From contig WELA01003305.1 of NCBI GenBank assembly GCA_009602735.1, positions 199,752 to 221,114 of the forward strand: a DNA stretch of 21,363 bases, written 5' to 3'. Each line of letters starts with the position of its first letter. The first letter of the stretch is position 1. Source of the DNA: Mesotaenium endlicherianum (taxonomy: Eukaryota). The position numbers and the translations under genes are program-made. Below, piece after piece: positions 2,312 through 20,294 of the stretch. The notes beneath the pieces were generated by a model. The model ran no database searches, had not been told where the DNA came from, and worked only from the letters and a program-made list of their open reading frames with translations.

Positions 2312-2469
2312 GTGGTTCTACAAATCTCCTCCTTAGTAAAAGCAAACATCTTGCGGTGTTTCTTCAGCAACCTTTCTACTTGTGCTCTCTGCTGGGCTGA
2401 GACCATTTTTCCAATGGCAAAAGTCTCAGTTTCAGGTTGCTTCTCCCCAGCAAAGGCATCCAGTAGTTG
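2312..2469 (-). pseudogene. N-terminal stub of RT-RH-IN frame, copy 1
   Basis: QLLDAFAGEKQPETETFAIGKMVSAQQRAQVERLLKKHRKMFAFTKEEI, matching the start of the 1010-aa ORF of copy 2. Confidence 0.88.
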
Positions 2470-2472
2470 CTA
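2464..2472 (-). promoter_or_regulatory. Putative stop-codon readthrough signal UAG-CAA-CUA, copy 1
   Basis: In-frame TAG followed by CAACTA (CARYYA consensus). Identical in copy 2. Confidence 0.7.
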
Positions 2473-4323
2473 TTCCTTGGGTGCAGGTTGGGGCTTTTTG
2501 CCCTCATCCTGGCCCTCAGGCTTTTTTGCCTGATTCTGGCTCTCAGGCTTTTCTGCCTGATTCTTAGGAGGTGGGGTAGCAGGCTTTGCAGCTTGCTCCT
2601 CCGTTGCCAAAGGCTTTGCAGCCTGTTTCCTAGGCTTTTTGCCTTTCCTAATGACGCGTCGCCTCTCCTGCGGTGAGGTGTACGTCAGGCGCCTCCGGAT
2701 GGGTTGCCTCAGGAACATTTCCTCGTCGACTGCAGTCCAACTGGTCCCGGTTCCTCCTTCTTCACGTGGCCGAGGTTGGTTTGCCATTGGCCAACTTGCA
2801 AGATCTGTCCTAGGGCTGATTACCCAGCCCCACTCTTGCTCAATATTAGCCATGCGGGCGACGGTCGTGCCATACTCCTCCCTTGCGGGTGGTGTGACCG
2901 TCCATGCCTGCGTCAACGTTTGCGGCCTTTGAGGTGCCGCTAGTTGTGCGAGGAAAACATCATCTGCTGCGGTCAAGCGGCTGATGGTGTTCCCCAGATC
3001 CATCAGTTCCCATTCTGGGATTGCAGGTGTCATGGGAGCAGGTGCCTCCGACCTCTGCATCCTAAGATTTGATAGTTGCAACAAGGGCGTGTTCATGCCT
3101 GGCGGCACACTCATGCCCAGTGCCATTGCCCTGCGGATCAAGCCGTCCTCTCCCTCTCTCTGCAGAATATCCCGCAGAGGTGGAGGAGGTGGGGCTGTGG
3201 TTCCTCGCGGAACGCCCTCTCTCTGAGCCTTCCCCTTATGCTTGAAATATCGCTTTAGCATCCTCCTAAAAGATGCGTTACTCTCATGGGCCACCTACCT
3301 TGGTTTGCTTGCGCGACCCTCGGGCTTACCTTGCGCTGCCTCCACTTTAGCAGTGCAGGCAGTCACCTCCTGCCGTTGTGGCGATCGTGCGGTTGACTTG
3401 GGCTCTGCCACTGGAAGACTGGCAATAGGGGTACTGGATGTTGGTGACCTTAATTCTTCATAAATGTCTGCCGAGCTTGGCCCCATTAGGTGGTCAGCTA
3501 CCCAGTGGTCTGTCCTCAAAACCTGTAAGTCAAGCAGATTCAACTCTGGCGTGGGAAAACGTGGAATTTCTTCCCTGGCTTCCTCTCCATTGATGAGTGA
3601 TGGCAACTCAAACTCTGAGAGGCCTTGCATCTCTGCATCCTCTCCCACCTCCGGCTTCTCTGTTCCAGGAGGCGGCGATTCTTCATCCCCTCCTGTGTTG
3701 AGCCTCGCCATGTTGATGATGGCTGACTGTAGAGCGCGAGCTAATTTCGCCACTTTCTCTTCCTTGAGTCGAGGGGCGTCTGCTTCCAGCAACTGCTCCA
3801 TGATTTGCCTGGTGATCGACTCAGCTGTGCTCCCAACTGTGTCTTGTGGTTGCCCTTTGGCCTCTAGCTCTGGGCTCATCAGAACAAGTGTGGCGGGCAA
3901 TGTCTCGATCGTCTTCTTCCTGCGTTCTTCAAAATCACCTCCGGGCATGGTCTTCCCAGACCCTCCAGAATTTCTTGAATTCTGACTGCATTCTTTGGCC
4001 CATTCGCCAATATTGCACTGCCGTTCTTCATATCTTGATGTTACCGCTTCTGGGGATGGGCTCCCAAAGACCTGGTCTGGGGCCATGTTTCGTAACTCAG
4101 AACTGGTATAATCTTCCCATTCCGGCATCCTCCCAACTACCTGGCTGGAGCGTTTTGCAGATGCTGGGACCTCCTGTGATTTGCTTGCTGCAGCGCTCGC
4201 GAAAGGGTTTGCTTCACCAATTGCCTGGTCTTCCATGGCTACGTCTTCCCGCAGCCTTTGCAACTTTCTTTCCAGAGGGTCGTGTAGAGCCGTCATCCGA
4301 TTGTCAATTTGTGCCAGTAGGTC
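2470..4323 (-). pseudogene. Low-complexity P/E/S/K-rich polyprotein linker of unknown function, copy 1
   Basis: ORFs 3295-4296 and 2470-3294 are in one frame, split by TAG where copy 2 has AAG. They are also in frame with 4324-5154. Confidence 0.75.
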
Positions 4324-5615
4324 TTAACACCTGGTCAGCTCAACCACTCTGGTTTCTCTGAGTGCTTCACCTTGGTCAGCCTCAGCTGCGTCCCTTTCAA
4401 CACCATATTCTTCTTGTTGCTGATGCGCTTCCTTGATAGCTCTCTGATCAGAGATTGGCACCACATGGACTCCAATCGTTACTGGTCTCGGCCTGGGCAT
4501 AGGCTTGTCAAAGATTGTCATCTGCTGCCAAGTCATAATCGTCTCCAGCAACCACGTCATGGAGTGATGCCCAATCATATTGCCGAATATCTTCCCAGCG
4601 TCGTCCTGTCCCACCATCGCAACGATTTCTTGTGCAATGGAGTTGGGTACCCCCAGGCACCTTCCCTTCCCTTCAGCTGTCGGCTCTCTCCACTGAGCTT
4701 CTCTGTCGTGCGCATTCTTCACCATACTTGGTCCTCCATTCACGAATGCGCGTGATCCTGGGTATGCTGTGAAGGTGGGCAGCACCACCTTTGGCAGGCC
4801 TGGCTCGTTGACGACGTACTGTGGGTAGGAATCCCTCCTGATCACTGGCTTGGTTTCCACCAACAGTGCTTCTCCCACAGATACTGCCGTTGGTGTGCGC
4901 CGCGTAATCTCCTCCATCTCCCTCAGGATTTCAATGGACATGCCGTTGGTCCAGAATAGTCTGGCCTGGTGTGAGAGTCCTCCGTGCCTGGCGTCGTTGA
5001 TCAATACATGATGACCCAGGGTGGAGTCAAAGACCAGCCATGGATCTCCTTGCTTCATCTGGTTGTAATTCATCCCTGGATGTACATTCTCAATCACAAA
5101 CACTGGTGGGTAGAGATGCTGGCGTTCCCGCGGCATACCGATGATTTCCACCAACCATCCTCAGTGTTGTGCTCCCCGGGTCATTGAATCCCCTCCTGTT
5201 CCCAGTTTGCGAGAAAGGTTGACAAGGAATCCCGCAAAAAATCCAGTCAATCCTATAACCATACAAGTCCTCAGACTTCACATCGAGAATGTTTCCTCCA
5301 GCAAGACGCACCAAACTAGTAGGCACCAACGCCTTGAAATGGTACATTTGCCGCATCTGACTCTTGACCTCCTTAAATGCTGAAAGCACTCTCATCATTG
5401 TCCACATACAGCACTTTTGGTACCTGGATACCCTGCTGAATCAGTGAGATGGTTCCAGAACCAAGTCCGGCAAACAACTCCAGCACTACTACTCCTCTCC
5501 TGCGAAAAGGATCTTCCATCCTCACAATGCCTTGCGGCAGCGGGTCTACTCCATGCATCAAATTGGCAGTAGACTTAACTGCATAAGGAACTTGGCAGCA
5601 GCTCTTGCGGGCCAC
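4324..5615 (-). pseudogene. C5 cytosine DNA methyltransferase domain, frameshifted, copy 1
   Basis: ELFAGLG (I), GIPCQPFS (IV), IENV (VI), HQARLFW (VIII) and FGNM (X) are spread over three frames. Confidence 0.88.
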
Positions 5616-6657
5616 GGTCCCTGTTACTCACAGCCTCTAGTTGCTCCATAATCCAAGGTTGCCAAACCAAGGGAGTCGGCATGTTGATGCTGGTGTAGAT
5701 CTTCTCTTCGTGTTGCATGATGAGGTCATAATGGTCTGGATACTGGTCATTCACACAGCAGTCTAGCAGTCCGTAGTTTGCTTCTCCTGAGCAAACCATT
5801 TTTACAGGAATTTCTCCTGTCGGCTGCCGATCTGTCGACTGGTAAGTCACCCTCTGCTTCCGCAGGTCGATGACCATACCCAGGGGAATCAGGGCTTCTG
5901 TCCCCAAGAGAACATCATAGTTCTCTGCCTCTGTCACCGTGCATTTTATGGGCAGTGACGCCTCCTCAGGTTTCCCCAAGTTTATTGTGATTTTCACAGG
6001 CTTGCGGGTGATTCCACAAGACTTTAAAATCTGCCCAGATGCAGTCCTCAACTGAAAAGAAATTTCTTTCAGGTCCCTTGCCGTCAATCCCAGAGCTTTC
6101 ACAGCTCGCTTTCCCAAGATTACTGGCTGTGCGCCATTGTCCAATAGGATATTGGGAGCGGCCCAGTTGTTAAACGTCAAAACTCTATCCTTGTTCTGCA
6201 CTCTCACAGTGCTGAAATTAGTAGGCAGCGAAGCGCTGTTCGCGCCTTCCTCAGCATGGTCCAGCTGCTGTCCGGCTTCTTCAACCGTGAAAGGATACGT
6301 AAGACGCAGATCAACGAGTGAAAGACAAGGAATATGCTGAATCCGGTGTTCCACCAGAGCCTTCAGCTTCTCCAGCGAAAAACTAAATGTCTTGCGTGGC
6401 TCAGGCTTGGCTTGTCGTAGCTGCGCAATCTCGTTCTCATCGAGAGTGATCCAAAAGGTCTGAGGAAGCTTCTCAGCATTCCTTGGAACCAGACGGTCAT
6501 GATCTGCGCGCTCCGCAGCCGTTGCAGCCACGGCCTTCTCAGACGTCAGCTTCTCACCTTTGCAGACGGTCTTTTCGGCCACATCTGCATCATAATAGAC
6601 ATTAGGCACATTTAGTCTTGCAAATTGAGCTTTCAACTCTGCAATCTCTGCACTCAT
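5575..6657 (-). pseudogene. Retropepsin aspartic protease region, copy 1
   Basis: ILLDNGAQ (DTG in copy 2) and DVLLGTEAL. Confidence 0.85.
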
Positions 6658-8299
6658 AGCATCATACTTCTGGTTACCCTTTGGGTTACCAAATTTATCT
6701 TTTCCTTTTTCTTACCCTTATCTGCCTCTTTCGTGGCAGCATTAGCCCATGGTGGCTTCAGATTTGGGTTCTTGGACCAACACTCATCTTCTGAGTGTCC
6801 CTTTTTGCTGCAATGTGCGCATACCTGCGCCTTGCTAGCAGACAATTGCTTAGCATCCGGGTACGGACAATCTCTCTTTTGATGTCCCGATTTCCCGCAA
6901 TTCCAAGAGCCCTCTTCTGTCTCAGCAGTGTTGGCGTGCTTAGCAAACCTATTGAAAGACCCGCTCTTTTTCTTAAACTGAAAATTAGAGCTATTGGCCT
7001 TAGGCTGAAAGGATTCCTCCTTTCTCTCAGGAGCCATAAGCGTCCTGGAAGCCTCCTTGTACCAGACTTTACCTTCCTCGACATTGCGTGCTATTTCAGC
7101 AGACTCGTTGATGTTCCAATCGATTCCGCGTTTTGCAGATAGGTGCGGCCTGACCTCCCGATCTGTGTCTTTACCCAAACACAATAAGAATTTGTCAGCC
7201 ACAATCCTAGGCTCATAGATTCCTGCCTTCTTGGCAAGGTCTACCAATTTGGATTTGACCTCCATCACTGTCTCGTTCTTCTGACGGACAAAATGCACAT
7301 AGCGGTGCACCTTAAGACTGCGATCCTCTGGGAATTTTGCTTCAAGCAACTTAAAGAAACGACGCAGACAGTGCTCAGAGTCTAACTGGTCATCCCCAGC
7401 CTCCATATCCCTACGGCAACTAGCCAATGCTTGCGCATGGCTTGCTTTNCGCATGGCTTGCTTCGTGGTGGCACTATCACCATGCTACCCTGTAAAAGGT
7501 GCAGCCCTACGTGTTACTTATTCGTGAGCATTAGCAATCTTTTCAGACAATTCTGCACACACTTTACGCAATTCTGCGACAGACCCAGCATCATCATCTC
7601 GAGTAGCCGCTCGCTGCTGACCCTCGGTGAGTTGCTTCATGGCATCTGTTAATTCTTGTGTTAGTGCAGCTAAGTCTATGCTCTCAACAGGTGCAGCAGG
7701 TATCGCTCTTCCTGATGACAAAGCGGACAGGCGGGCTTTCGCAGCCTCTTTCTGAATTTTAATATCCCTCGCCTTCTTTTGCTCGTCAAACGCCCATTCC
7801 TGGGTAAGGTTCTCATCCTTCTGGAATTGGCCATAAAGCAACAAGGCATCCTTGTCCAAGTACTGAACCAAGCTTATAAAGCGAAAGACTGAGTGTAAGA
7901 AGAATCCTTTTGGATTCTCTCAAAGAAGTCAGCCCAATAGATCTCATCAAACTCTTCGAAAGTGAGACTATTTCCACCGGTTCGTCCACTAAAACACTTT
8001 GTAGACAGCTTGAACTTAGGATTTTCATCCTTATCATCACCAGTCATTTCGAACGGTGACCAAGACTCACTATCTTTACCCCACACGTCGTGCTCTCTGC
8101 CCAAATTGGGTACAAAGGCTTGCGCGTTATACGGATTCTCACCGTTCGTGGCAGTATGGCAAGACTCGTCTCCGGACGGTTGCTCACTCCACAGGTTATC
8201 CGTGCGCTCTGATGTCTCACTTCCTCGTGGACTCTGGCTTGAATCAGAACCTTCCGCAGGCTCCACAGGGTAGTAGAGTCTTCCACTCCTCAACCGCAT
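6654..8299 (-). pseudogene. gag: Gag with zinc knuckles, frameshifted, copy 1
   Basis: MRLRSGRLY start and CAHCSKKGHSEDEC knuckle. The first knuckle has C-to-S. The frame is broken near 7875, 7518 and 7449. Confidence 0.82.
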
Positions 8300-8908
8300 G
8301 TACAGTTGAATTTCTCCGGATCCCCTTCCAGGTTGAGCACCGGCAGCCCTCACAGGCCTCAATCCCCAATTTGCTTGGGAATTTCTATTCACCTGAATTA
8401 CAGAACCGAGGTTCTCAGAAGTAGGATGGAAGTCTCTTACTTCCACATAGGCTTTATGCCTTAAGGTTCTTGGGTTCACAGGCGAGCAAATTGTAGTTTG
8501 CAAAACACTCTAAGCAGCTTGACATACAACGTCAGATTCAGAGAAAATCGCCCTTCAGGCTTTCGCTTAACTTTCACAAAGTCACAGCTTACAAAACTCT
8601 GAAACTACACGTCTATGCTGGCCTGGGTCAAGCTCTTCACTTAACACCGCGCCTTAACAGTTCTTCACTGCCAGGCTAGGCTCACTCATTTCTTCACTGA
8701 GAGCCTTATCTGCCAATACTACCCTCTCTCTTCGAGATGCGAATGCGACTTCTAAGAACCTGGAAACTAACACACAACTCATCATTTTAAGGCTGCTTCA
8801 CACACACTTGTGGCGTTCGGCCAAATCTGTGCTAATCTCCTAGCAGATTCTATTCTGCAGTTTTCCTACTTTCAACAGTGAGATTCCCTTTTGGGAACTC
8901 CTACAATC

Positions 8909-9127
8909 CTAACTTATCTTCGATACACTAAGAAGAATCTTCAGCGTCGGCAGAAGCGTGGGGCCTCGGCTCTCCAATGGCCTTGGGAACTCCTTCTTCT
9001 TCTTCGCGCCCTTCTTCTCCTTCCTTCTGCTCTTTCTGCTCCTTCTGCTTCTTGGCAAAAGTGCGTGAGAGTGAATAACATGTCTCAGGCAAGATTCGTG
9101 CCTTCCGCAGGCACCACACAGCGTCAT
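8909..9127 (-). CDS. Possible small Cys/His- and Lys/Arg-rich upstream ORF, copy 1
   Basis: ATG start, CGACGRHESCLRH, basic tract. The frame is open in both copies. Confidence 0.25.
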   Translation of the reverse strand: MTLCGACGRHESCLRHVIHSHALLPRSRRSRKSRRKEKKGAKKKKEFPRPLESRGPTLLPTLKILLSVSKIS

Positions 9128-9723
9128 CTTTCGAGAATGGCGTGCTTAGTCACAAAGCTTAGCTTCATGTCGCTTCTTCCTAGCCATGCTCAACTCAAAC
9201 TCGTAGTCACTCGGCATGCATGCACACCTCGTGACTGTCGCTTCTCAGCTGGCAGTCACGCCTAATTGGCTCGTGGCTAAGAACTCCTGAGCGGCGTGTA
9301 CAAGCAAATGCCCCTTGCTCAAGATTCCCAACCGGGCGGCCGTAACCTATCTTGGCATTGCGGCCATGACCTGGCTTAATCTGCCAGTCACACAGTATCT
9401 GACTTGGTACCTGCTGGGCAACTCATCACTGATCCCCAACTTCTAGCCTCGCGGCTGTCTATGATGTCAAAACCTCCCCCATCCCTGGGTGTGGGGCACA
9501 TTGACATTGACCCCTTGCCAGTGGTCTTGACGCCGACATAACCACTGACTGCGACGTAATCAGTCAAGTGGTCGGTGAGTCAACGTTGACTTTCCGAACC
9601 TGGATGGCCGTAGCTTGCGCTGCGTGTGCGGCACCGTCAAACGGATAGTAGTCGCGACACCAATTCTATACCGTAGTATATACCTACCTCTATTATATTC
9701 TACCACATTAATTAATATATCTC

Positions 9724-9727
9724 ATCA
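9724..9727. repeat. 4-bp target site duplication ATCA (left)
   Basis: ATCA|TGTCGTG at 9724-9734 and CGCGACA|ATCA at 20288-20298. Confidence 0.75.
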
Positions 9728-10023
9728 TGTCGTGCCTAACAGTGTCGGTCCCTCGGCACGTGCGTAGCCTTCCAGCACGTGTGCCTTCGGCCTGGTTGAT
9801 GTGTCGGTGGCCCTCCTGACGTGTGGCAGACATGGTCGATCGACCTTTGCACGTGTGTTGGTGACAAGCCTTACCAGGGTTAACCCATCCCTGGGTTCCT
9901 GAACTTGCACCATGCAGCCTTGACCAACACTCAGGGTGACGTTCTCTGTCACCCGGCTCTCACCATCTGCTTATCCTAAGACTTTAGCAGAAAATTTTAA
10001 AAAATACTTGCCTTGCCTTAATT

Positions 10024-10044
10024 CCTCTTACACCCTTCCCTTTC
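10024..10044 (-). promoter_or_regulatory. Putative polypurine tract of element B
   Basis: Minus strand GAAAGGGAAGGGTGTAAGAGG, overlapping the integrase stop and followed by AATTAA as in element A. Confidence 0.6.
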
Positions 10045-13000
10045 AGCTGAGGCGTCCCTGCCTTTCCTGCTGAAAGCTATTATTTTCCAGCCCTGCGGCT
10101 AGGGGTTTAGGAAGGCAATCAGGACATTCCCATCGTCCTGCCATAATTTCTTCCTCGCCAATGCAGAAAGTGTGCCAACGGGCACCACACTCGTCGCAAG
10201 TTACCATTGCTTCCTGATCGTCCAGCACTTTGCACCTGGCACAAGGCGTGGCCGGCACCAATTCCTCGGGCACCACCCTAACTGTGGGATCAATATTCGG
10301 CAAATGGCATAGCGAGCAATTCTGCACGTGGTCTCTCATGGTTTTACCATCAAAACCTTCCAGTTCTAACACACCATTGTCAAACGCATGTTTCACGCGC
10401 AAGATCACTGCACCTGAACTGGTGTCGATGGTGGTCTTGGTCTGGCGCTTGCGGTAGACAAAGTCTCCTTCTTGTATCCGCGTCATCTGCAGGCGGTAGC
10501 TCCCGTCTCGCGTCCTAGCGTAACGTTGCGTATCTCTTTTCTGTGCAATTTTCAGATTGACTAGTGCAGCCGGTATCATGCGTTCAAATAACGCCTTACG
10601 GCGCACCATCACTTTTAACAGTTCATCAGGGCTGTCCAGGTCTTTCACCTGTTCAATCTCCTGCTTGATGCTGCTGGGCACTACTGGACTTCTGCCAAAC
10701 AGTATCTGATATGGCGAGTAATTTGCCAAGGCAGCCTGCTTGCTAAATCTGTAACCCATAACCAGCCATGGCAGGGCTAGATCCCAGTCACGCTTGTCAT
10801 GCTCAAGGCAAAACTTGCGCAAAGCAGACTTAATGGTTTGCACCATCCTTTCTGCCAGACCATCTGCTTGCGGATGATCTCTAGACGTAGTGCGATGATC
10901 GATGAAGCATCTGTCCAAGAGTTTCTGAAAAGACCCTTGGAACTCAGACCCTTGGTCTGTCAGCACTTCTGCTGGAGCTCCATGACGCACAATCACACCA
11001 TTGAGGAATGCTTCCGCGGTCCCTAGGCTTTCCTTAGCAGTCAGAGGGACAACCTCTATCCACTTAGAGAAATGCTCAATCATGACCATGATATACTTGT
11101 TACCTTGCTTAGACAGCGGTAGCTCACCTGCGAGATCGCAGCTCCAACGGTAACCTAGGCCCATGATTGGCAAATGTTGCAAGTGTAGGTGTTGCTGCGT
11201 AAAACCAGCCTTGACGCGATCACAGCTTTGGCAAGCCTTGATCACATCTTCACACTGCTGCTTCATGCCCCTCCACCAGTAAGACAGCTCCAAAAGACTA
11301 TATGTCTTCTTGACACCATAGTGTCCAGTGTTCTTGTGCATTTCTTGCACAAGGGCTCGTCCTTTGATGGGTTCTGGCACTAACTTCTCCTGACCAGTTT
11401 CTTCAATTCTGAAGAGGTTGTTGCATTTCCAGCAAAACCTTTTAGCTCGATGGTTTACCTGGTCCTTCTCCTTCACTGATAGTCCTTCCAAGTGAGTTCC
11501 CGTCTTAAGCCAGTGCATAGTAGCTTGATCTTTCCAGATCTCTGTACTGAACAGGGGTAGAGGCTCAGCTTCACCTGATGCTACTATTCCAGCCATTTCG
11601 GCTAGGCAAGCCACCAACTCTGCTGGGCTGCTCGGGTCTTCGTCCTCTCGAGCTCCTGTTCTGTCGTCTGAAGATGGGTCTGGGTTCCTGCTGAGTCCAT
11701 CGGCGTCGTTGTTGAGCACTCCTGCTCTGTGCACCACCGTCATTTGGTACTCTTGCAGCTTAAGAGCCCAGCGAGCCAACTTACCAGTGAGGTCTCCATT
11801 CTTCATCAGCCATAGTAATGGTGAGTGATCCGTGATCAGTGTGAAGGGTCTTCCCCACAGATACTCTCTGAAGTGTGTGACCGCCCAAACCACTGCCAGC
11901 AGCTCTCCTTCATAGGACGAGTAGTTGCTCTCCGCTCGATTGTTAGAGCGTGAGGCATAGGCAATGACATACTCCTCTCTAGGGCTTGTGGCCTGAGTGA
12001 GTACTGCGCCAATTCCCACACGACTCCAGTCAGTGTGCATATTGAACGGTTTGGAGTAGTCAGGCGTTCGCAAGACTGGGGCTGTTACCAGCCGCTTCTT
12101 AAGCTCGTTCATGGCTTTCTCCTGAGCTTCTGTCCACACAAAAGGTACATCCTTTTTCAGGAGTTCCGTAAAGGGTTTAGCAATTCTGCTATAATCCTTC
12201 ACAAACTTACGATAGTATCCGCTTAGCCCTAACAGAGCTTTCAGCTTAGACACATTCGCAGGTGCAGGTATCTTGTAAATAGCCTCAGTCTTCACAGCCT
12301 GAGGGGACATAGCATTGTTCCCAATCTCATGTCCTAGGTAAGGCACGTGTGCCTCAAAGATTTTGCACTTCCCAGGATGCAGCTTCATCTGGAATTTCTC
12401 CAGGCGCTGGAACACTTGTTCCAAGTGCTCGAGGTGCTCCTCTATGGACTTGCTGAATACTACCACATCGTCTATGTATGGCTTAGCGAAATCCAGCCCC
12501 TCTAGCACTTTATCCATAGTCCTCTGAAATATGGCTGGGGCATTTTTCAGCCCAAATGGCATTACTGTCCATTGCCAAAGTTCCCTTTGAGCCCAAAAAG
12601 CAGTTTTACCTCGATCTTCTGTTTTCACAAGGATCTGGTTGAAGCCTTGGCGCAGATCGATAATGCTGAACACCTTTCCGGTGGTGGCAATTACAAAGAT
12701 CCGTTCCGGCGTAGGCATCACATAGCTATCCGGCTCCGTGTAGAGATTCAGTCGCCTGTAATCTCCACACATACGAGTGGCAGTGTAATTGCCGGCCTCG
12801 TCCTTTTTAGTGACTACTATTGTAGGAGCTCCATGTATTGAGGTAGATTTTTCAATCATGCGGAGCTTATGCAGCTCTTCACAAGTGTTCTCCACACAGT
12901 CCCATTCTGTCTGACTGAGCTTATGCGGCCCTAGTCTGATTGGGTTATCAGTAGTTAGTGTGATCTCACACGCACTGGCAGTGGTTCCACCAATCTCCTC

Positions 13001-13138
13001 CTTAGTGAAAGCAAATACCTTGCGGTGTTTCTTCAGCAACCTTTCTACTTGTGCTCTCTGCTGGGCTGAGACCATTTTCCCAATGGCAAAAGTCTCAATT
13101 TCAGGTTGCTTCTCCCCAACAAAGGCATCCAGTAGTTG
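10043..13138 (-). CDS. pol: Pol: reverse transcriptase - RNase H - DDE integrase - PHD finger (open frame)
   Basis: RT: CGDYRRLN, IDLRQGFNQI, MPFGLKNAP, YIDD (about 12467-12478). RNase H: TDWS, YEGELLA, TDH, DADGLSR. Integrase: H-H-C-C, CDLAG, TDQGSEF, AERM. PHD C4HC3 at 10115-10243. First ATG at 13075, but the frame is open from 13138. Confidence 0.96.
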   Translation of the reverse strand, partial: QLLDAFVGEKQPEIETFAIGKMVSAQQRAQVERLLKKHRKVFAFTKEEIGGTTASACEITLTTDNPIRLGPHKLSQTEWDCVENTCEELHKLRMIEKSTSIHGAPTIVVTKKDEAGNYTATRMCGDYRRLNLYTEPDSYVMPTPERIFVIATTGKVFSIIDLRQGFNQILVKTEDRGKTAFWAQRELWQWTVMPFGLKNAPAIFQRTMDKVLEGLDFAKPYIDDVVVFSKSIEEHLEHLEQVFQRLEKFQMKLHPGKCKIFEAHVPYLGHEIGNNAMSPQAVKTEAIYKIPAPANVSKLKALLGLSGYYRKFVKDYSRIAKPFTELLKKDVPFVWTEAQEKAMNELKKRLVTAPVLRTPDYSKPFNMHTDWSRVGIGAVLTQATSPREEYVIAYASRSNNRAESNYSSYEGELLAVVWAVTHFREYLWGRPFTLITDHSPLLWLMKNGDLTGKLARWALKLQEYQMTVVHRAGVLNNDADGLSRNPDPSSDDRTGAREDEDPSSPAELVACLAEMAGIVASGEAEPLPLFSTEIWKDQATMHWLKTGTHLEGLSVKEKDQVNHRAKRFCWKCNNLFRIEETGQEKLVPEPIKGRALVQEMHKNTGHYGVKKTYSLLELSYWWRGMKQQCEDVIKACQSCDRVKAGFTQQHLHLQHLPIMGLGYRWSCDLAGELPLSKQGNKYIMVMIEHFSKWIEVVPLTAKESLGTAEAFLNGVIVRHGAPAEVLTDQGSEFQGSFQKLLDRCFIDHRTTSRDHPQADGLAERMVQTIKSALRKFCLEHDKRDWDLALPWLVMGYRFSKQAALANYSPYQILFGRSPVVPSSIKQEIEQVKDLDSPDELLKVMVRRKALFERMIPAALVNLKIAQKRDTQRYARTRDGSYRLQMTRIQEGDFVYRKRQTKTTIDTSSGAVILRVKHAFDNGVLELEGFDGKTMRDHVQNCSLCHLPNIDPTVRVVPEELVPATPCARCKVLDDQEAMVTCDECGARWHTFCIGEEEIMAGRWECPDCLPKPLAAGLENNSFQQERQGRLS

Positions 13139-13141
13139 CTA
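13133..13141 (-). promoter_or_regulatory. Putative stop-codon readthrough signal UAG-CAA-CUA, copy 2
   Basis: TAG at 13139-13141 is in frame with pol, 21 codons before the ATG at 13075, in CARYYA context. Confidence 0.7.
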
Positions 13142-15040
13142 CTCCTTAGGTGCAGGTGGGGGCTTCCCGCCCTCATCCTGGCCCTCATGCTTTTCTGCCT
13201 GATTCTGGCTCTCAGGCTTTTCTGCCTGATTCTTAGAAGGTGGGGTAGCAGGCTTTGCAGCTTGCTCCTCCGTTGCCATAAGTTCGGCAGCCTGTTTCTT
13301 AGGCTTTTTACCTTTTCCAATGACGCGTCGCCCCTTGCGGTGAGGGGTATGTCAGGCGCCTCCGGATGGGCTGCCTCAGGAACATTTCCTCGTCGATTGC
13401 AGTCCAACTGGTCCCGGTTCCTCCTTCTTTACGTGGCCGAGGTTGGGTAGCCATTGGAAAACCTGCGGGGTCTGTCCTAGGGCTGATCGCCCAGCCCCAT
13501 TCTCGCTCAATAATAGCCATGCGGGCGACGGTCGTGTTATACTCCTCCCTTGCGGGTGGTGTGACCATCCATGCCTGCGCCAATGTTTGCGGCCTTTGAG
13601 GTGTTGCTAGTCGTGCGAGAAAGGCATCATCTGCTGCGGTCAAGCGGCTGATGGTGTTTCTCTGATCCATCAGTTCCCATCCTGGGATTGCAGGTATTAT
13701 GGGAGCAGGCTCCTTCGACCTCTGTATCCTAAGATCTGATAGTTGCAACAAGGGCGTGTTCATGCTTGGCGGCACACCAATGCCCAATGCCATTGCCCTG
13801 CGAACCAAACCGTCCTCTCCCTCTCTCTGCAGAATATCCCGCAGGGGCGGAGGAGGTGGGGCTGTGGTTCCTCGCGGAACGCCCTTTCTTTGAGCCTTCC
13901 CTTTATGTTTGAAATATCGCTTTAGCATCCTCCTAAAAGATGCGTTACCCTCACGAGCCTCCTTCCTTGGTCTGCTTACGCGACTTTCGGGCTTTCCTCG
14001 TGCTGTCTCCACTTTAGCAGTGCAGGCAGTCACCTCCTGCTGTTGCGGCGATTGTGCGGCTGACTTGGGTTCTGCCACTGGAAGACTGGCAGAAGGAGAA
14101 CTGGATGTTGGCGACCTTAATTCTTCATAAAGGTCTGCTGGGCTTGGCCCCATCAGGTGGTCAGCCACCCAGTCGTCTGTCCTCAGCTCCTGTAAGTCAA
14201 GCAGATCCAACTCTGGCGTGGGAAAACGTGGAATTTCTTCCCTAATGTCCCCTTCATTGTTGAGTGATGGCAACTCCAACTCCGAGAGGCCTTGCATCTC
14301 TGCATCCTCTTCCTCCTCCGGCTTCTCTATTCCAGGAGGCGACAATTCTTCATCCCCTCCTGTGTTGAGCCTCGCCATGTTGATGATAGCTGACTGTAGA
14401 GCGAGAGCTGCTTTTGCCACTTTTTCGAGGGGCGTCTGCTTCCAGCAACTGCGCCATGATTTGCCTGGTGATTGACTCAGCTGTGCTGCCAACTGTGTCT
14501 TGTGGTTGCCCTTTGGCCTCTGGCCCTGGGCTCATCCGAGCAAGTGTGGCGGGCAATCTCTTGGCCGCCTCCTTCTTGTGTTCTTCAAAAATCACCTCCA
14601 GGCAAATGGTCATTCTAGACCCTCCAGAATTTCCTGAATTTTGACTGCATTCTTCGGCCCATTTGCCAATATTGCACTGGCGTTCTTCATATCTTGATGT
14701 TACCGCTTTTGGGGATGGGCTCCCGGAGACCTGGTCTGGGGCCATGTTTCGTAACTCAGAACTGGTATAATCTTCCCATTTCGGCATCCTCCCAACTACC
14801 TGGCTGGAGCGTTCTGCAGATGCTGGGACCTCCTGTGATTTGCTTACTGCAACGCTCACCAAAGGGTTTGCTGCACCAGTTGCCTGGTCTTCCATGGTTA
14901 CATCTTCTCGCAGCCTCCGCAACTCTCTTTCTAGAGGGTCGTGTAGAGCCGCCATCCGAGTGTTAATTCACGTCAATATGTCTTGACACCTGGTCAGTCC
15001 CACCACTCTGGCTTCTCTGAGTGTTTCCTCTTAGTCAACC
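13139..15040 (-). pseudogene. Low-complexity linker region, copy 2 (frameshifts and stops)
   Basis: Homologous to 2470-4380. Indels near 13333, 14425 and 15050, and stops near 14968 and 15031. Confidence 0.75.
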
Positions 15041-17752
15041 TCAGCTGCGTCTTTCAACAGCATATTCTTTTTGTCGCTGATACGCTTCCCTCATAGCTCT
15101 CTGATCAGAGGTTGGCACCACATGAACTCCAATCGCTACCGGCCTCGGCCTGGGCATAGGCTTGTCAGAGAACGTCATCTGTTGCCAAGTTATAATCGTC
15201 TCTACCAACCATGTCATGGACTGATGCCCAATCATATTGCCGAACATCTTCCCAGCGTTGTCCTGTCCCACCTTTGCAACAATTTCTTGTGCAATGGAGC
15301 TGGGTACCCCCAGGCACCTTCCCTTCTCTTCAGCTGTCGGCTCTCTCCACTGAGCTTCTCTGTTGTGCACATCTTTGACCATTCCTGGCCCTCCATTCAC
15401 GAAAGCGCGTGATCCTGGGTATGCTGTGAAGGTGGGCAACACCATTCTCGGCCGGCCTGGCTTGTTGACGACGTACTGTGGGTAGGAATCCCTCCTGATC
15501 ACTGGCTTGGTTTCCACCAACAGTGCTTCTCCCACAGATACTGCCGTTGGTGTGCGCCGCGTAATCTCCTCCATCTCCCTCAGGATTTCAATGGACATGC
15601 CGTTGGTCCAAAATAGTCTGGCCCGGTGTGAGAGTCCTCCGTGCCTGGCGTCGTTGATTAATACATGATGACCCAAGGTGGAGTCGAAGACCAGCCATGG
15701 ATCTCCTGGCTTCATGTGGCTGTAATCCATCCCTGGATGTACATTCTCAATCACAAACACTGGTGGGTAGAGATGCTGGCGTTCCCGCAGCATAATGATG
15801 ATCTTCACCATCCTTCCCCAGTGTTGTGCTCGCGGGTCATTGAATCCCCTCCTGTTCCCAGCTTGCGAGAAAGGTTGACAAGGGAATCCCGCAAAAATCC
15901 AGTCAATCCTGTAATCATACAGGTCGTCAGACTTCACATCGAGAATGTTTCCTCCAGCAAGACGCACAACACTAGTGGGCACAAATGCCTTGAAATGGTA
16001 CATTTGCCGCATCTGACTCATGGCCTCCTCAAATGCTGTAATAACATTCTCATCATTGTCCACATACAGCACTTTGGATACTCGGATACCTCGCTGAATC
16101 AGTGTGATGGTTCCAGTACCAAGTCCGGCGAACAATTCCAGCACTACTATTCCTCTCCTGCGAAAAGGATCTTCCATCCTCACAATGCCTTGCGGCAATG
16201 GGTCTACTCCAGGCATCAAATTGGCAGCAGTCTTAACAGGATAAGGAACTGGCAGCAGCTCTTGCGGGCCACGGTCCCTGTTACTCACAGCCTCTAGTTG
16301 CTCCATAATCCAAGGTTGCCAAACCAAGGGAGTCGGCATGTTGATGCTGGTGTAGATCTTCTCTTCGTGTTGCATGATGAGGTCATGATGGTCTGGATAC
16401 TGGTCATTCACACAGCAGTCTAGCAATCCGTAGTTTGCTTCTCCTGAGCAAACCATTTTTACAGGAATTTCTCCTGTTGGCTGCCGATCTGTCGACTGGT
16501 AAGTCACCCTCTGCTTCCGCAGGTCGATGACCATACCTTGGGGAATCAGAGCTTCTGTCCCCAATAGAACATCATAGTTTCCTGCCTCTGTCACCGTACA
16601 GTCTATGAACAGTGACGCCTCCTCAGGTTTCCCCAAGTTTACTGTGATTTCCACAGGCTTGCGGGTGATTCCACAAGACTTTGAAATCTGCCCAGATGCA
16701 CTCCTCAACTGGAAAGGACTTTCTTTCAAGTCCCTGGCCGTCAATCCCAGAGCTTTCACAGCTCGCTTTCCCAAGATTACTGGCTGTGCGCCAGTGTCCA
16801 ATAGGATATTGGGAGCGGCCCAGTTGTTAAACGTCAAAATTCTATCCTTGTTCTGCACTCTCACAGTGCTGAAATTAGTAGGCAGCGAAGCGCTGTTCGC
16901 GCCTTCCTCAGTTAGGTCCAGCTGCTGTCCGGCTTCCTCAATCGTGAAAGGATATGTAAGACGCAGATCAGCGAGTGAAAGACAAGGAATGTGCTGAATC
17001 CGGTGTTCCACCAGAGCTTTCAGCTTTTCCAGCGAAAGACTAAATGTGTTGCGTGGCCCAGGCTTGGCTTGTCGTAGCTGCGCAATCTCGTGCTCATCGA
17101 GAGTGATCCAAAAGGTCTGAGGAAGCTTCCCAGCATTCCTTGGAACCAGACGGTCATGATCTGCGCGCTCCGCAGCCGTTGCAGCCACGACCTTCTCAGG
17201 CGTCAGCTTTTCGCCTTTGCAGACGGTCTTTTCGGCCACATCTGCATCATAATAGACATTAGGCACATTTAGTCTTGCAAATTGAGCTTTCAATTCTGCA
17301 ATCTCTGCACTTATAGCATCATACTTCTGATTACCCTTCCGGTTACCAGAGTTATCTTTCTCCTTTTTCTTAGCCTTATCTGCCTCTTTCGTGGCAGCAT
17401 TAGCCCATGGTGGTTTCAGATTTGGGTTCTTGGACCAACACTCATCTTCTGAGTGTCCCTTTTTACTGCAATGTGCGCATACCTGCGCCTTGCTAGCAGA
17501 CAATTGCTTAGCATCCGGGTACGGACAATCTCTCTTCTCATGTCCTGATTTCTCGCAGTTCCAACAGCCCTCTGCTGTCTCAGCAGTGTTGGCGTGCTTA
17601 GCAAACCTATTGAAAGACCCGCTCTTTTTCTTAAACAGAAAGTTAGAGCTATTGGCCTTGGGCTGAAAGGATTCCTCCCTTCTCTCAGGAGCCATAAGCG
17701 TCCTAGAAGCCTCCTTGTACCAGACTTTACCTTCCTCGACATTGCGTGCTAT
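15041..17752 (-). CDS. Polyprotein segment: two CCHC knuckles, aspartic protease, C5 cytosine methyltransferase (about 15200-16150)
   Basis: CWNCEKSGHEKRDC, CAHCSKKGHSEDEC; LLDTGAQ; ELFAGLG (I), AGFPCQPFSQAG (IV), IENV (VI), HRARLFW (VIII), RCLGVP (IX), FGNM (X). Confidence 0.93.
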   Translation of the reverse strand: MARNVEEGKVWYKEASRTLMAPERREESFQPKANSSNFLFKKKSGSFNRFAKHANTAETAEGCWNCEKSGHEKRDCPYPDAKQLSASKAQVCAHCSKKGHSEDECWSKNPNLKPPWANAATKEADKAKKKEKDNSGNRKGNQKYDAISAEIAELKAQFARLNVPNVYYDADVAEKTVCKGEKLTPEKVVAATAAERADHDRLVPRNAGKLPQTFWITLDEHEIAQLRQAKPGPRNTFSLSLEKLKALVEHRIQHIPCLSLADLRLTYPFTIEEAGQQLDLTEEGANSASLPTNFSTVRVQNKDRILTFNNWAAPNILLDTGAQPVILGKRAVKALGLTARDLKESPFQLRSASGQISKSCGITRKPVEITVNLGKPEEASLFIDCTVTEAGNYDVLLGTEALIPQGMVIDLRKQRVTYQSTDRQPTGEIPVKMVCSGEANYGLLDCCVNDQYPDHHDLIMQHEEKIYTSINMPTPLVWQPWIMEQLEAVSNRDRGPQELLPVPYPVKTAANLMPGVDPLPQGIVRMEDPFRRRGIVVLELFAGLGTGTITLIQRGIRVSKVLYVDNDENVITAFEEAMSQMRQMYHFKAFVPTSVVRLAGGNILDVKSDDLYDYRIDWIFAGFPCQPFSQAGNRRGFNDPRAQHWGRMVKIIIMLRERQHLYPPVFVIENVHPGMDYSHMKPGDPWLVFDSTLGHHVLINDARHGGLSHRARLFWTNGMSIEILREMEEITRRTPTAVSVGEALLVETKPVIRRDSYPQYVVNKPGRPRMVLPTFTAYPGSRAFVNGGPGMVKDVHNREAQWREPTAEEKGRCLGVPSSIAQEIVAKVGQDNAGKMFGNMIGHQSMTWLVETIITWQQMTFSDKPMPRPRPVAIGVHVVPTSDQRAMREAYQRQKEYAVERRS

Positions 17753-18943
17753 TTAAGCAGCCTCGTCGATGTTCCAGTCGATTCCGCGTTTCGCAAATAG
17801 GTGCGGCCTGACCTCCCGATCTGTATCTTTACCCACACACAATAAGAATTTGTCAGCCACAATCCTAGGCTCATAGATTCCCGCCTTCTTGGCAAGGTCT
17901 ACCAATCTAGATTTGACCTCCATCACTGTCTCGTTCTTTTGACGGACAAAATGCACATAGCGGTGCACTTTAAGACTGCGATCCTCTGGGAATGTTGCTT
18001 CAAGCAATTTAAAGAAACGACGCAGACAGTGCTCAGAGTCTAACTGGTCATCCCCAGCCTCCATATCCCTACGGCAAATAGCCAATGCTTGCGCATGGCT
18101 TGCTTCCGTGGTGACACTATCACCATGCTGCCCTGTAAAAGGTGCAGCTCTGCGTGTTACTCGTTCCTGGGCATTAGCAATCTTTTCAGACAATTCTGCA
18201 CACACTTTACGCAATTCTGCGACAGACCCAGCATCATCATCTCGAGTAGCCGCTCGCTGCTGACCCTCGGTGAGTTGCTTCATGGCATCTGTTAATTCTT
18301 GTGTTAGTGCAGCTAAGTCTACGCTCTCAACAGGTGCAGCAGGTATCGCTCTTCCTGATGACAAAGCGGACAGGCGGGCTTTCGCAGCCTCTTTCTGGAT
18401 TTTCAAATCTCTCGCCTTCTTTTGCTCGTCAAACGCCCATTCCTGGGTAAGGTTCTCATCCTTCCGAAATTGGCGATACAGCAACAAGGCATCCTTGTCC
18501 AAGTACTGAACCAAGCTTATAAAAGCGACTGACTGAGTGTAAGAAGAATCCTTTCGGATTTTCTCAAAGAAGTCAGCCCAATAGATCTCATCAAACTCTT
18601 CGAAAGTGAGACTATTTCCACTGGTTCGTCCACTAAAACACTTTGTAGACAGCTTGAACTTAGGATTTTCATCCTTATCATCACCAGTCATTTCGAGTGG
18701 TGACCAAGACTCACTATCTTTATCCCACACGTCGTGCTCTCTGCCCGAATTGGGTACAAAAGCTCGCGCGTAATACGGATTCTCACCGTTCGTGGCAGTA
18801 TGGCGAGACTCGTCTCTCGACGGTTGCTCACTCCACAGGTTATCCGTATGCTCAGATGTCTCACTTTCTCGTGGACTCTGGCTTGAATCAGAACCTTCCG
18901 CAGGCTCCACAGGGTAGTAGAGTCTTCCACTCCTCAACTGCAT
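17753..18943 (-). pseudogene. gag: Gag N-terminal/capsid region, copy 2, cut from the downstream ORF by one nonsense codon
   Basis: First ATG at 18943 (MQLRSGRLY). TAA at 17753-17755 corresponds to GAA in copy 1, and the frame is the same as 15041-17695. Confidence 0.82.
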
Positions 18944-19546
18944 GTACAGTTGAATTTCTCCGGGTCCCCTTCCAGGTTGAGCACCGGTAGCCCTCACAGG
19001 CCTCAATCCCCAATTTGCTTGGGAATTTCTATTCACCTGAACCACAGAACCCAGGTTCTCAGAAGTAGGACGGAAGTCTCTTACTTCCACATAGGCTTTA
19101 TGCCTTAAGGTTCTTGGGTTCACAGGTGAGCAAATTGTAGTTTGCAGAAATCACACTCTAAGCAGCTTGACATGCAACGTCAAATTCAGAGAAAATCGCC
19201 CTTCAGGCTTTTGCTTAACTTCCACAAGTCAGCTTACAAAACTCTGAAACTACGTCTATGCTGGCCTGGGTGAAGCTCTTCACTTAACACCGCGCCCTAA
19301 CAGCTCTTCACTGCCAGGCTGGGCTCACTCAGTTTTTCACTGAGAGCTTTATCTGTCAATACTACTCTCTCTCTTCGAGATGCGAATGCGACTGCCGAGA
19401 ACCTGGAAATCAACACACTACTCACCATTTTAAGGCTCCTTCACACACACACACTTGTGGCGTTCGGCTGACTCTGTGCTAATCTCCTAGCAGATTCTAT
19501 TCTGCACTTCTCCTTCTTCAACCGTGAGATTCCCTCTTGGGAACTC

Positions 19547-19753
19547 CTACAATCCTAACTTATCTCTGATACACAGAAGAATCTTCAGCGTTGTCAGAAG
19601 CGTGGGGCTTTGGCCCTCCAATGGCCTTGGGAACTCCTTCTTCTTCTTCGCGCCCTTCTTCTCTTTCCTTTTGCCTCTTGGCAAAGGTGCGTGAGAGTGA
19701 ATGACATGTCTCAGGCAAGATTCGTGCCTTTCGCAGGCACCACACAGCATCAT
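19547..19753 (-). CDS. Possible small Cys/His- and Lys-rich upstream ORF, copy 2
   Basis: MMLCGACERHESCLRH...KRKEKKGAKKKKE, homologous to 8909-9127. Confidence 0.25.
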   Translation of the reverse strand: MMLCGACERHESCLRHVIHSHAPLPRGKRKEKKGAKKKKEFPRPLEGQSPTLLTTLKILLCIRDKLGL

Positions 19754-20294
19754 CTTTCGAGAATGCCGTGCTTAGTCACACAAGTTAGCTGCATGTCGCT
19801 TCTGCCTAGCCATGCTCAACCCAAACTTGTAGTCATTCAGCATGCATGCACACCTTGTGACTGTCGCGCGTGACTGCTTAGCTTCTCAGCTGGCAGTCAC
19901 GCCTAATTGGCTCATGGCTAAGGATTCCTGAGCGGCGTGCAAGCAAATGCCACCTGCTCAAGTTTTCCCAACCGGGCGGCCGTAACCTATCTTGGCATTG
20001 CAGCCATGACCTGGCTTAATCTGCCAGTCACACAGTACCTGACCTGGTACTTGCTGGGCGGCTCATTGCTGATCCCCAGCTCCTAGCCTCGCGGCTGTCT
20101 TGTCAAAACCTCCCCCATCCTTGGGTGTGGGGCACACTGACATTGACCCCTTGCCAGTGGTCTTGACGCCGCCATAACCGCTGACTGCGATGTAATCAGT
20201 CAAGTGGTCGGTGAGTCAAGGTCGACTTTCAGCACTAGGTGGCCGTAGCTTGCGCTGCGCGTGCGACACCGTCAAACGGATAATAGTCGCGACA

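Follow-up and report, generated by a model that had tools for sequence, protein, structure and literature searches.

In a Ty3/Gypsy retrotransposon of Mesotaenium endlicherianum that carries a cytosine methyltransferase (DNMT), an in-frame TAG followed by a CAR-YYA hexamer probably works, to judge from sequence comparison, as a programmed readthrough site. The window, by which we mean the whole stretch of 21,363 nucleotides that was analysed, contains two copies of this element, A and B, both Ty3/Gypsy with DNMT, both on the minus strand and 93% identical to each other. The first-pass annotation had placed the stop after the protease (PR) and the DNMT and just before the reverse transcriptase (RT), and the domain order given by Pfam and catalytic motifs agrees with this placement.

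Results

Layout of the element

The features on which the analysis rests are as follows.

9728..20294, minus strand: copy B, full span, with TGTCG...CGACA ends, ATCA on both sides and no terminal direct repeat
13142..18943, minus strand: ORF1 of copy B, about 1,940 codons, interrupted by a stop and by indels that are private to this copy
16547..16810, minus strand: aspartic protease domain with DTG motif (Pfam PF13975, E 9e-6, under the curated cut-off)
15173..16162, minus strand: C5 cytosine methyltransferase domain with ELFAG, GFPCQ and IENV motifs (Pfam PF00145, E 5e-17)
13142..15172, minus strand: linker from DNMT to stop, about 680 codons, no Pfam family
13139..13141, minus strand: TAG stop of copy B, which ends ORF1 (Gag-PR-DNMT-linker); proposed readthrough codon
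13133..13138, minus strand: CAA CTA hexamer of copy B, which fits the CAR-YYA tobamovirus-type readthrough context
13045..13135, minus strand: predicted long 3' stem-loop, spanning +4 to +94 from the stop (folding z -2.0 in copy B and -3.0 in copy A, 120 nt)
10043..13138, minus strand: ORF2, RT-RNase H-integrase-PHD, 1031 codons, open, with a TGA end (Pfam, ORF translation)
2312..9659, minus strand: copy A, which ends about 50 codons past the stop, cut by the end of a related plus-strand element
2464..2472, minus strand: TAG CAA CTA of copy A, identical to the copy B 9-mer

The Ty3/Gypsy domain order Gag-PR-RT-RH-IN is present according to Pfam, with the PR match lying under the curated cut-off; the Gag region returned no Pfam match, and Gag was assigned from its position and from CCHC-type knuckles in the sequence. 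The DNMT, with its catalytic motifs, sits between PR and RT, as it does in KnitGypsy-Dnmt3-like elements. The linker that follows it is 5-10 times longer than the 70-139 residues found in relatives. Synonymous versus nonsynonymous change between copies A and B is near neutral there (29/62), and we call the linker coding because it contains no shared stops and not on the grounds of dN/dS. Having neither a Pfam match nor shared stops, it may hide a domain. Our search found no long relatives of the window DNMT region, which is weak evidence.

The stop codon in the two window copies

Both copies encode APKE * QLLDAF (13141-13133 in copy B and 2472-2464 in copy A), and the TAG CAA CTA that had been reported in frame in both was confirmed on the minus strand, as were the silent differences in the codons flanking the stop (CCT/CCC and GAG/GAA). 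At 93% identity any 9-mer would remain unchanged about half the time, such that agreement between the copies is by itself not beyond chance; the two are too close to reveal selection, and the evidence that goes beyond chance comes from variants in run X1 and from distant relatives. Copy A forms a single open frame from 5176 to the TAG except for private stops, and copy B keeps a single frame between 19149 and 15052, interrupted by one private TAA. It had been claimed that every other stop compared is private to one copy, and apart from the TAG we indeed found no stop shared in the ORF1 frame in aligned blocks of at least 60 nt between the gag start and the end of copy A. Since the open stretches of A and B overlap and no other stop is shared, ORF1 and Pol lie in one frame, one codon apart.

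Variation among family copies

The family is present at high copy in the public run X1, where 973 contigs aligned on 1.5 kb. Over 13092-13188, covered by 72 X1 contigs, ten variant rows of at least 1% were obtained, all of them at 13142-13155. Within 13123-13157, our own estimate of the zone where variants can be listed, variants of at least 1% affect 9 of the 16 positions upstream of the stop (13142-13157) and none of the 19 from 13123 to 13141 (Fisher p 1.6e-4), and third codon positions vary at 5/5 sites upstream versus 0/6 at or after the stop (p 2e-3); both p-values are descriptive, given that the copies are related, and the underlying listing comprises variants of at least 1% in contigs, which drop rare variants. 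Synonymous-site conservation at and just 3' of the stop, a hallmark of type I signals, is therefore seen in X1. The scenario in which most copies carry a sense codon at this place, which the first-pass annotation had named as fatal to its proposal, does not describe these 72 contigs, in which no variant of at least 1% falls on the stop.

Alignment of the most divergent X1 pieces among the matches listed (about 82% identity) breaks off at 13142-13201, in three cases at 13142-13144, directly beside the stop. Run X11 contributed two contigs with no variant listed at the stop, coverage in run X9 reaches only to 13140, and that in run X13 does not extend to the stop. The RNA run X24, of which about 6% was read, gave 0 reads on 13092-13188.

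Conservation in distant relatives

Our scans yielded 87 loci, the metagenome part being the best 80 of 521, and 48 RT starts were found in them. In four (L001, L002, L082 and L044) the first stop met upstream of RT is TAG-CAR-YYA; it lies in the DNMT frame, 21-28 codons ahead of the RT match, and these relatives share about 48% Pol identity with the window element. The same combination accounts for 33 of 97,755 stop triplets in these sequences. The hexamers read CAA TCA in L001 and L082, CAG TTA in L002 and CAA CTA in L044, so that the encoded residues shift (Gln-Leu, Gln-Ser) while CAR-YYA holds (CAA/CAG; CTA/TTA/TCA); conservation thus appears to operate at the nucleotide and not at the amino-acid level. 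Because L001, L002 and L082 are close kin, independent support amounts to 2-3 lineages. Two decayed copies, L028 and L031, have TAG CAA CCC, which is off consensus, at the same place. The fixed TAG-CARYYA that the first-pass annotation had suggested looking for in related families is therefore present at the homologous place in the four relatives, and an in-frame UAG followed by CAR-YYA, the type I (tobamovirus) arrangement, is common to them and the window copies.

Pol is open for at least 1000 codons in eight elements, three near (48-49% identity) and five distant (39-41%). In 3/3 of the near ones TAG-CAR-YYA is the only stop between DNMT and RT, with 728, 1369 (L002) and more than 1162 open codons upstream of it; in the five distant ones no stop occurs near RT as far as the contigs reach. 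The remaining RT starts belong mostly to a decayed sister group, in which nine have no stop between DNMT and RT, four have scattered stops and others are frameshifted or cut. Among 25 matches in the sister group, a lesion near this place reads TAG in 7, CAG in 14 and CAA in 4, and it lacks CAR-YYA. Viral contigs contributed one distant locus in one search and none in another. The contigs of L082-L087 sit in bacterial MAGs, where they most likely represent eukaryotic contamination of the bins. Taken together, these comparisons show, at the level of sequence, that the stop is real and in frame, that it is fixed among copies, and that distant relatives conserve it at the homologous place.

Protein clusters and phylogeny

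Thirty-five protein clusters are related to the ORF1 of L002, and the 16 best (43-85% identity) stop 70-139 residues past DNMT, without RT; this evidence is at the protein level, where the codon context at the ends is not visible. The remaining clusters comprise three from Marchantia that end 12-74 residues past DNMT, seven fused to RT, seven with DNMT further C-terminal and two without DNMT. Two Marchantia proteins, P0208 and P0213, both marked partial, end at a similar place. Seven clusters, P0218-P0224, appear to have DNMT after integrase, so that the position of DNMT differs among elements. The named relatives are charophyte algae and liverworts, from which a host in that range would be expected. 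Those in which DNMT runs into RT are the more distant ones, including that of Klebsormidium nitens, and since such fused relatives without a stop exist, the stop is not needed by every DNMT-Gypsy element.

In a quick tree, from which the L028 row is disregarded (a different element lies on that contig), a single well-supported clade unites L001, L002, L082 and L044 with proteins from Calypogeia and Coleochaete. P0024 lies within this stop-bearing clade yet is fused, and the Coleochaete protein P0002 has no stop at the homologous place. The window element forms a long branch in an unresolved fork and is not placed with support in the stop-bearing clade; a topology that joins it to these elements is not rejected (p-AU 0.854; 20 of 33 rows). 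One old origin of the stop followed by losses is possible, and convergence is likewise open to the data.

A predicted structure 3' of the stop

In eight cassettes an arm starting 4-17 nt past the stop is predicted to pair about 75-115 nt downstream, over the codons for VSAQQR or LTGAE. Folding z-scores run from -2.0 to -5.0 for the window element, L001, L002 and L082, but do not reach significance for L044, L028 and L031. Ranked among 30 windows, the one after the stop comes second in the window element and fifth, fourth and first in relatives, with z from -2.5 to -6.0. Within the first 100 nt the two copies differ at three bases, all of which keep the fold, two being C-G/U-G swaps and one affecting an unpaired base. 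Covariation is weak, both sides changing in 2 of 13 pairs, a value reached by 54 of 500 shuffles, and RNAalifold pairs the same 5' arm preferentially with a different stretch, on 3+3 sequences that are too weak to fix the stem. Structure-stimulated readthrough (Firth et al. 2011) involves a conserved 3' stem past a short spacer, with compensatory changes; the long 3' stem-loop here has modest support from prediction, and we treat it as a lead only.

Ends and neighbours of the element

From its sequence the element appears to work like Gypsy; its ends are non-canonical. We found no long terminal direct repeats between the ends of copy B; relatives have split repeats. The 4-base ATCA on both flanks of copy B resembles a target-site duplication. 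DIRS-like A-coding-B-A-B repeats, absent from copy B, are present in L006, L032, L070 and L080, where they sit on integrase-encoding elements, as for KnitGypsy-Dnmt3; those of L006 pair 3593-3881 with 13215-13503 and 13035-13215 with 13504-13684. Copy B may be an A-coding-B-A-B element that lost A-B through B-repeat recombination.

Positions 1-2312 on the plus strand hold the 3' end of a related integrase-PHD element, which interrupts copy A. Its purine tract is followed by a 139-bp repeat (1026-1164 and 2174-2312) around about 1 kb, and its CGACA-GC-TGTC junction recurs in L001 and L082, with GT in L002; the stretch 1026-2312 fits, and suggests, the B-A-B terminus of Gypsy elements with split repeats. 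Copies A and B are separated by only 68 AT-rich bases (9660-9727), and this third relative is nested at the other end. Such clustering could possibly reflect targeted insertion, perhaps via the integrase PHD finger.

Discussion

The proposal of a leaky stop gains support from two sides, the absence of any X1 variant of at least 1% at the stop or hexamer and the retention of TAG-CAR-YYA in distant relatives. In plants, UAG-CAR-YYA is enough for readthrough, with insertion of Tyr (PMC2754532). In the element, most ribosomes would terminate at the TAG, yielding Gag-protease-DNMT-linker, and the minority that decode it with an amino acid, perhaps helped by the 3' stem-loop, would go on to translate RT-RNase H-integrase-PHD. 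This would set protease and DNMT at a ratio of about 1:1 to Gag and far above the amounts of RT and integrase, and DNMT could be packaged in the particle and methylate the new cDNA, the latter being a hypothesis put forward in PMC5890265. That readthrough occurs, the rate at which it does, and a DNMT abundance at Gag stoichiometry are what we infer from the signal.

The main rival to this reading is splicing at the TAG, in which, as in Ogre elements, the AG of the TAG would serve as acceptor and a minor spliced RNA would join upstream coding sequence to pol. The TAG does fit a YAG acceptor and short pyrimidine runs precede it in some relatives, but the 30 nt upstream have an ordinary content (pyrimidine share 0.43-0.60, with 1-3 earlier AGs), and in X1 sequence is free to vary on the 5' side of the TAG and constrained on the 3' side, which is the reverse of what an acceptor would produce. 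Splicing explains neither CAR-YYA nor the match between the ORF1 and pol frames at every linker length, and the Ogre ORFs are about 274 bp apart as against one codon here; we accordingly hold it to be unlikely. Less likely again is separate production of Pol, from an internal promoter or by reinitiation past the stop. In its favour, codon 22 past the stop in the window is an AUG in good context, and in yeast the junction of Tca2 shows weak activity as an internal promoter (PMC2194720). Yet the first AUG lies at codon 22, 14, 117, 117 and 48 after the stop, with no conserved restart, its use in L002 and L082 (codon 117, just before the CGDY motif) would truncate the N-terminus of RT, and the hexamer would be left unexplained.

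Two further explanations deny that the TAG is a leaky stop, and we give each of them very little credence. An inherited lesion common to a non-autonomous subfamily would suit two window copies that are 93% alike and carry many lesions each, and 7 of 25 decayed sister-group matches do have the TAG form of a CAG/TAG lesion near this place. This is largely refuted: X1 has no variant of at least 1% at the stop, the same signal recurs, in otherwise fully open frames, in relatives of about 48% identity, and the genuine lesion of the sister group is polymorphic and comes without CAR-YYA. Recoding of UAG as Gln is known from some green algae, and a host that reads it so would accommodate the TGA with which Pol ends in 4/4 open elements. 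All 190 Gln codons of four Pol frames and all 145 of the open upstream frames are, however, CAA or CAG, each element has one TAG, at one homologous site, and the named relatives include liverworts.

If programmed readthrough is accepted, in-frame readthrough stops are already known elsewhere in retroelements, and what appears new, in that our searches did not find it, is UAG-CAR-YYA after the protease of a Ty3/Gypsy element. Avian sarcoma/leukosis virus also exerts control after the protease, between Gag-PR and Pol, by a -1 frameshift and without a DNMT. The stop of soybean SIRE1 reportedly lies in a CAR-YYA context. SIRE1 is likewise a plant retroelement with stop suppression, but it is Ty1/copia and its stop is at the pol/env boundary and not ahead of RT (Havecker and Voytas 2003, cited in PMC2194720). 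Ogre (PMC6317226) also splits GAG-PROT from RT-RH-INT after the protease, via an intron, and has no DNMT; there, as in avian sarcoma/leukosis virus, protease is produced together with Gag. In Tj1, Tosmo1-3, Tcry1, Tca2 and MuLV one in-frame gag/pol stop sets the ratio of structural to enzymatic products (bioRxiv 10.1101/2022.12.06.519325, PMC2194720) and, as cited in the same two texts, it is essential for Tj1; these stops separate Gag from PR-RT-IN and rely on UGA-CU or a pseudoknot, whereas here protease and DNMT are upstream. The type I signal of tobamoviruses (PMC2754532, PMC3159437) has the same stop and hexamer and splits an abundant N-terminal product from the polymerase. Unlike tobamoviruses, the present carrier is a retrotransposon and not an RNA virus, and the codon 5' of its stop mostly does not end in A (GAG, GAC, GAT, AAG), whereas TMV has xxA. 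The tobamovirus hexamer needs no structure (PMC3159437); the long 3' stem-loop predicted here is more like the alphavirus, furovirus and benyvirus cassettes, and its layout resembles the readthrough cassettes of PMC3159437. In our literature search we came across no description of CAR-YYA readthrough downstream of the protease or in an element with a DNMT, although Gao 2003, Havecker 2003 and the supplements of the bioRxiv paper, PMC5890265 and PMC6317226 might hold one.

The nearest described element is KnitGypsy-Dnmt3 of K. nitens (de Mendoza et al. 2018, PMC5890265), which has the same Gypsy domain set with DNMT in the polyprotein and whose DIRS-like split repeats are also found in relatives of the window element. 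Its DNMT is described within the Pol polyprotein ORF, whereas here the same frame is kept with a TAG in between, and the K. nitens protein P0044, a 43% match to Pol, runs from DNMT into RT without a stop. The main text of PMC5890265 uses "stop codon" once, about LINEs, and does not use "frameshift".

Why some retrotransposons carry a cytosine methyltransferase is an open question (PMC5890265), and the position of the recoding signal tells on which side of the structural/enzymatic divide the DNMT lies, with the fused relatives providing a natural comparison. Annotation would treat intact members of this clade as broken or divide each of them between two genes, which is what protein collections do, and the Marchantia proteins P0208 and P0213 suggest a model plant for study. 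As a broader proposal, which we advance tentatively and regard as somewhat more apt to fail than to hold, a widespread charophyte and bryophyte DNMT-Gypsy clade would possess an ancient TMV-type signal with a 3' stem-loop, by which DNMT would be kept at capsid level, RT and integrase would be rationed and the cDNA would be methylated in the particle before integration, and in which the stop, gained or lost, would act as a dial of DNMT dose.
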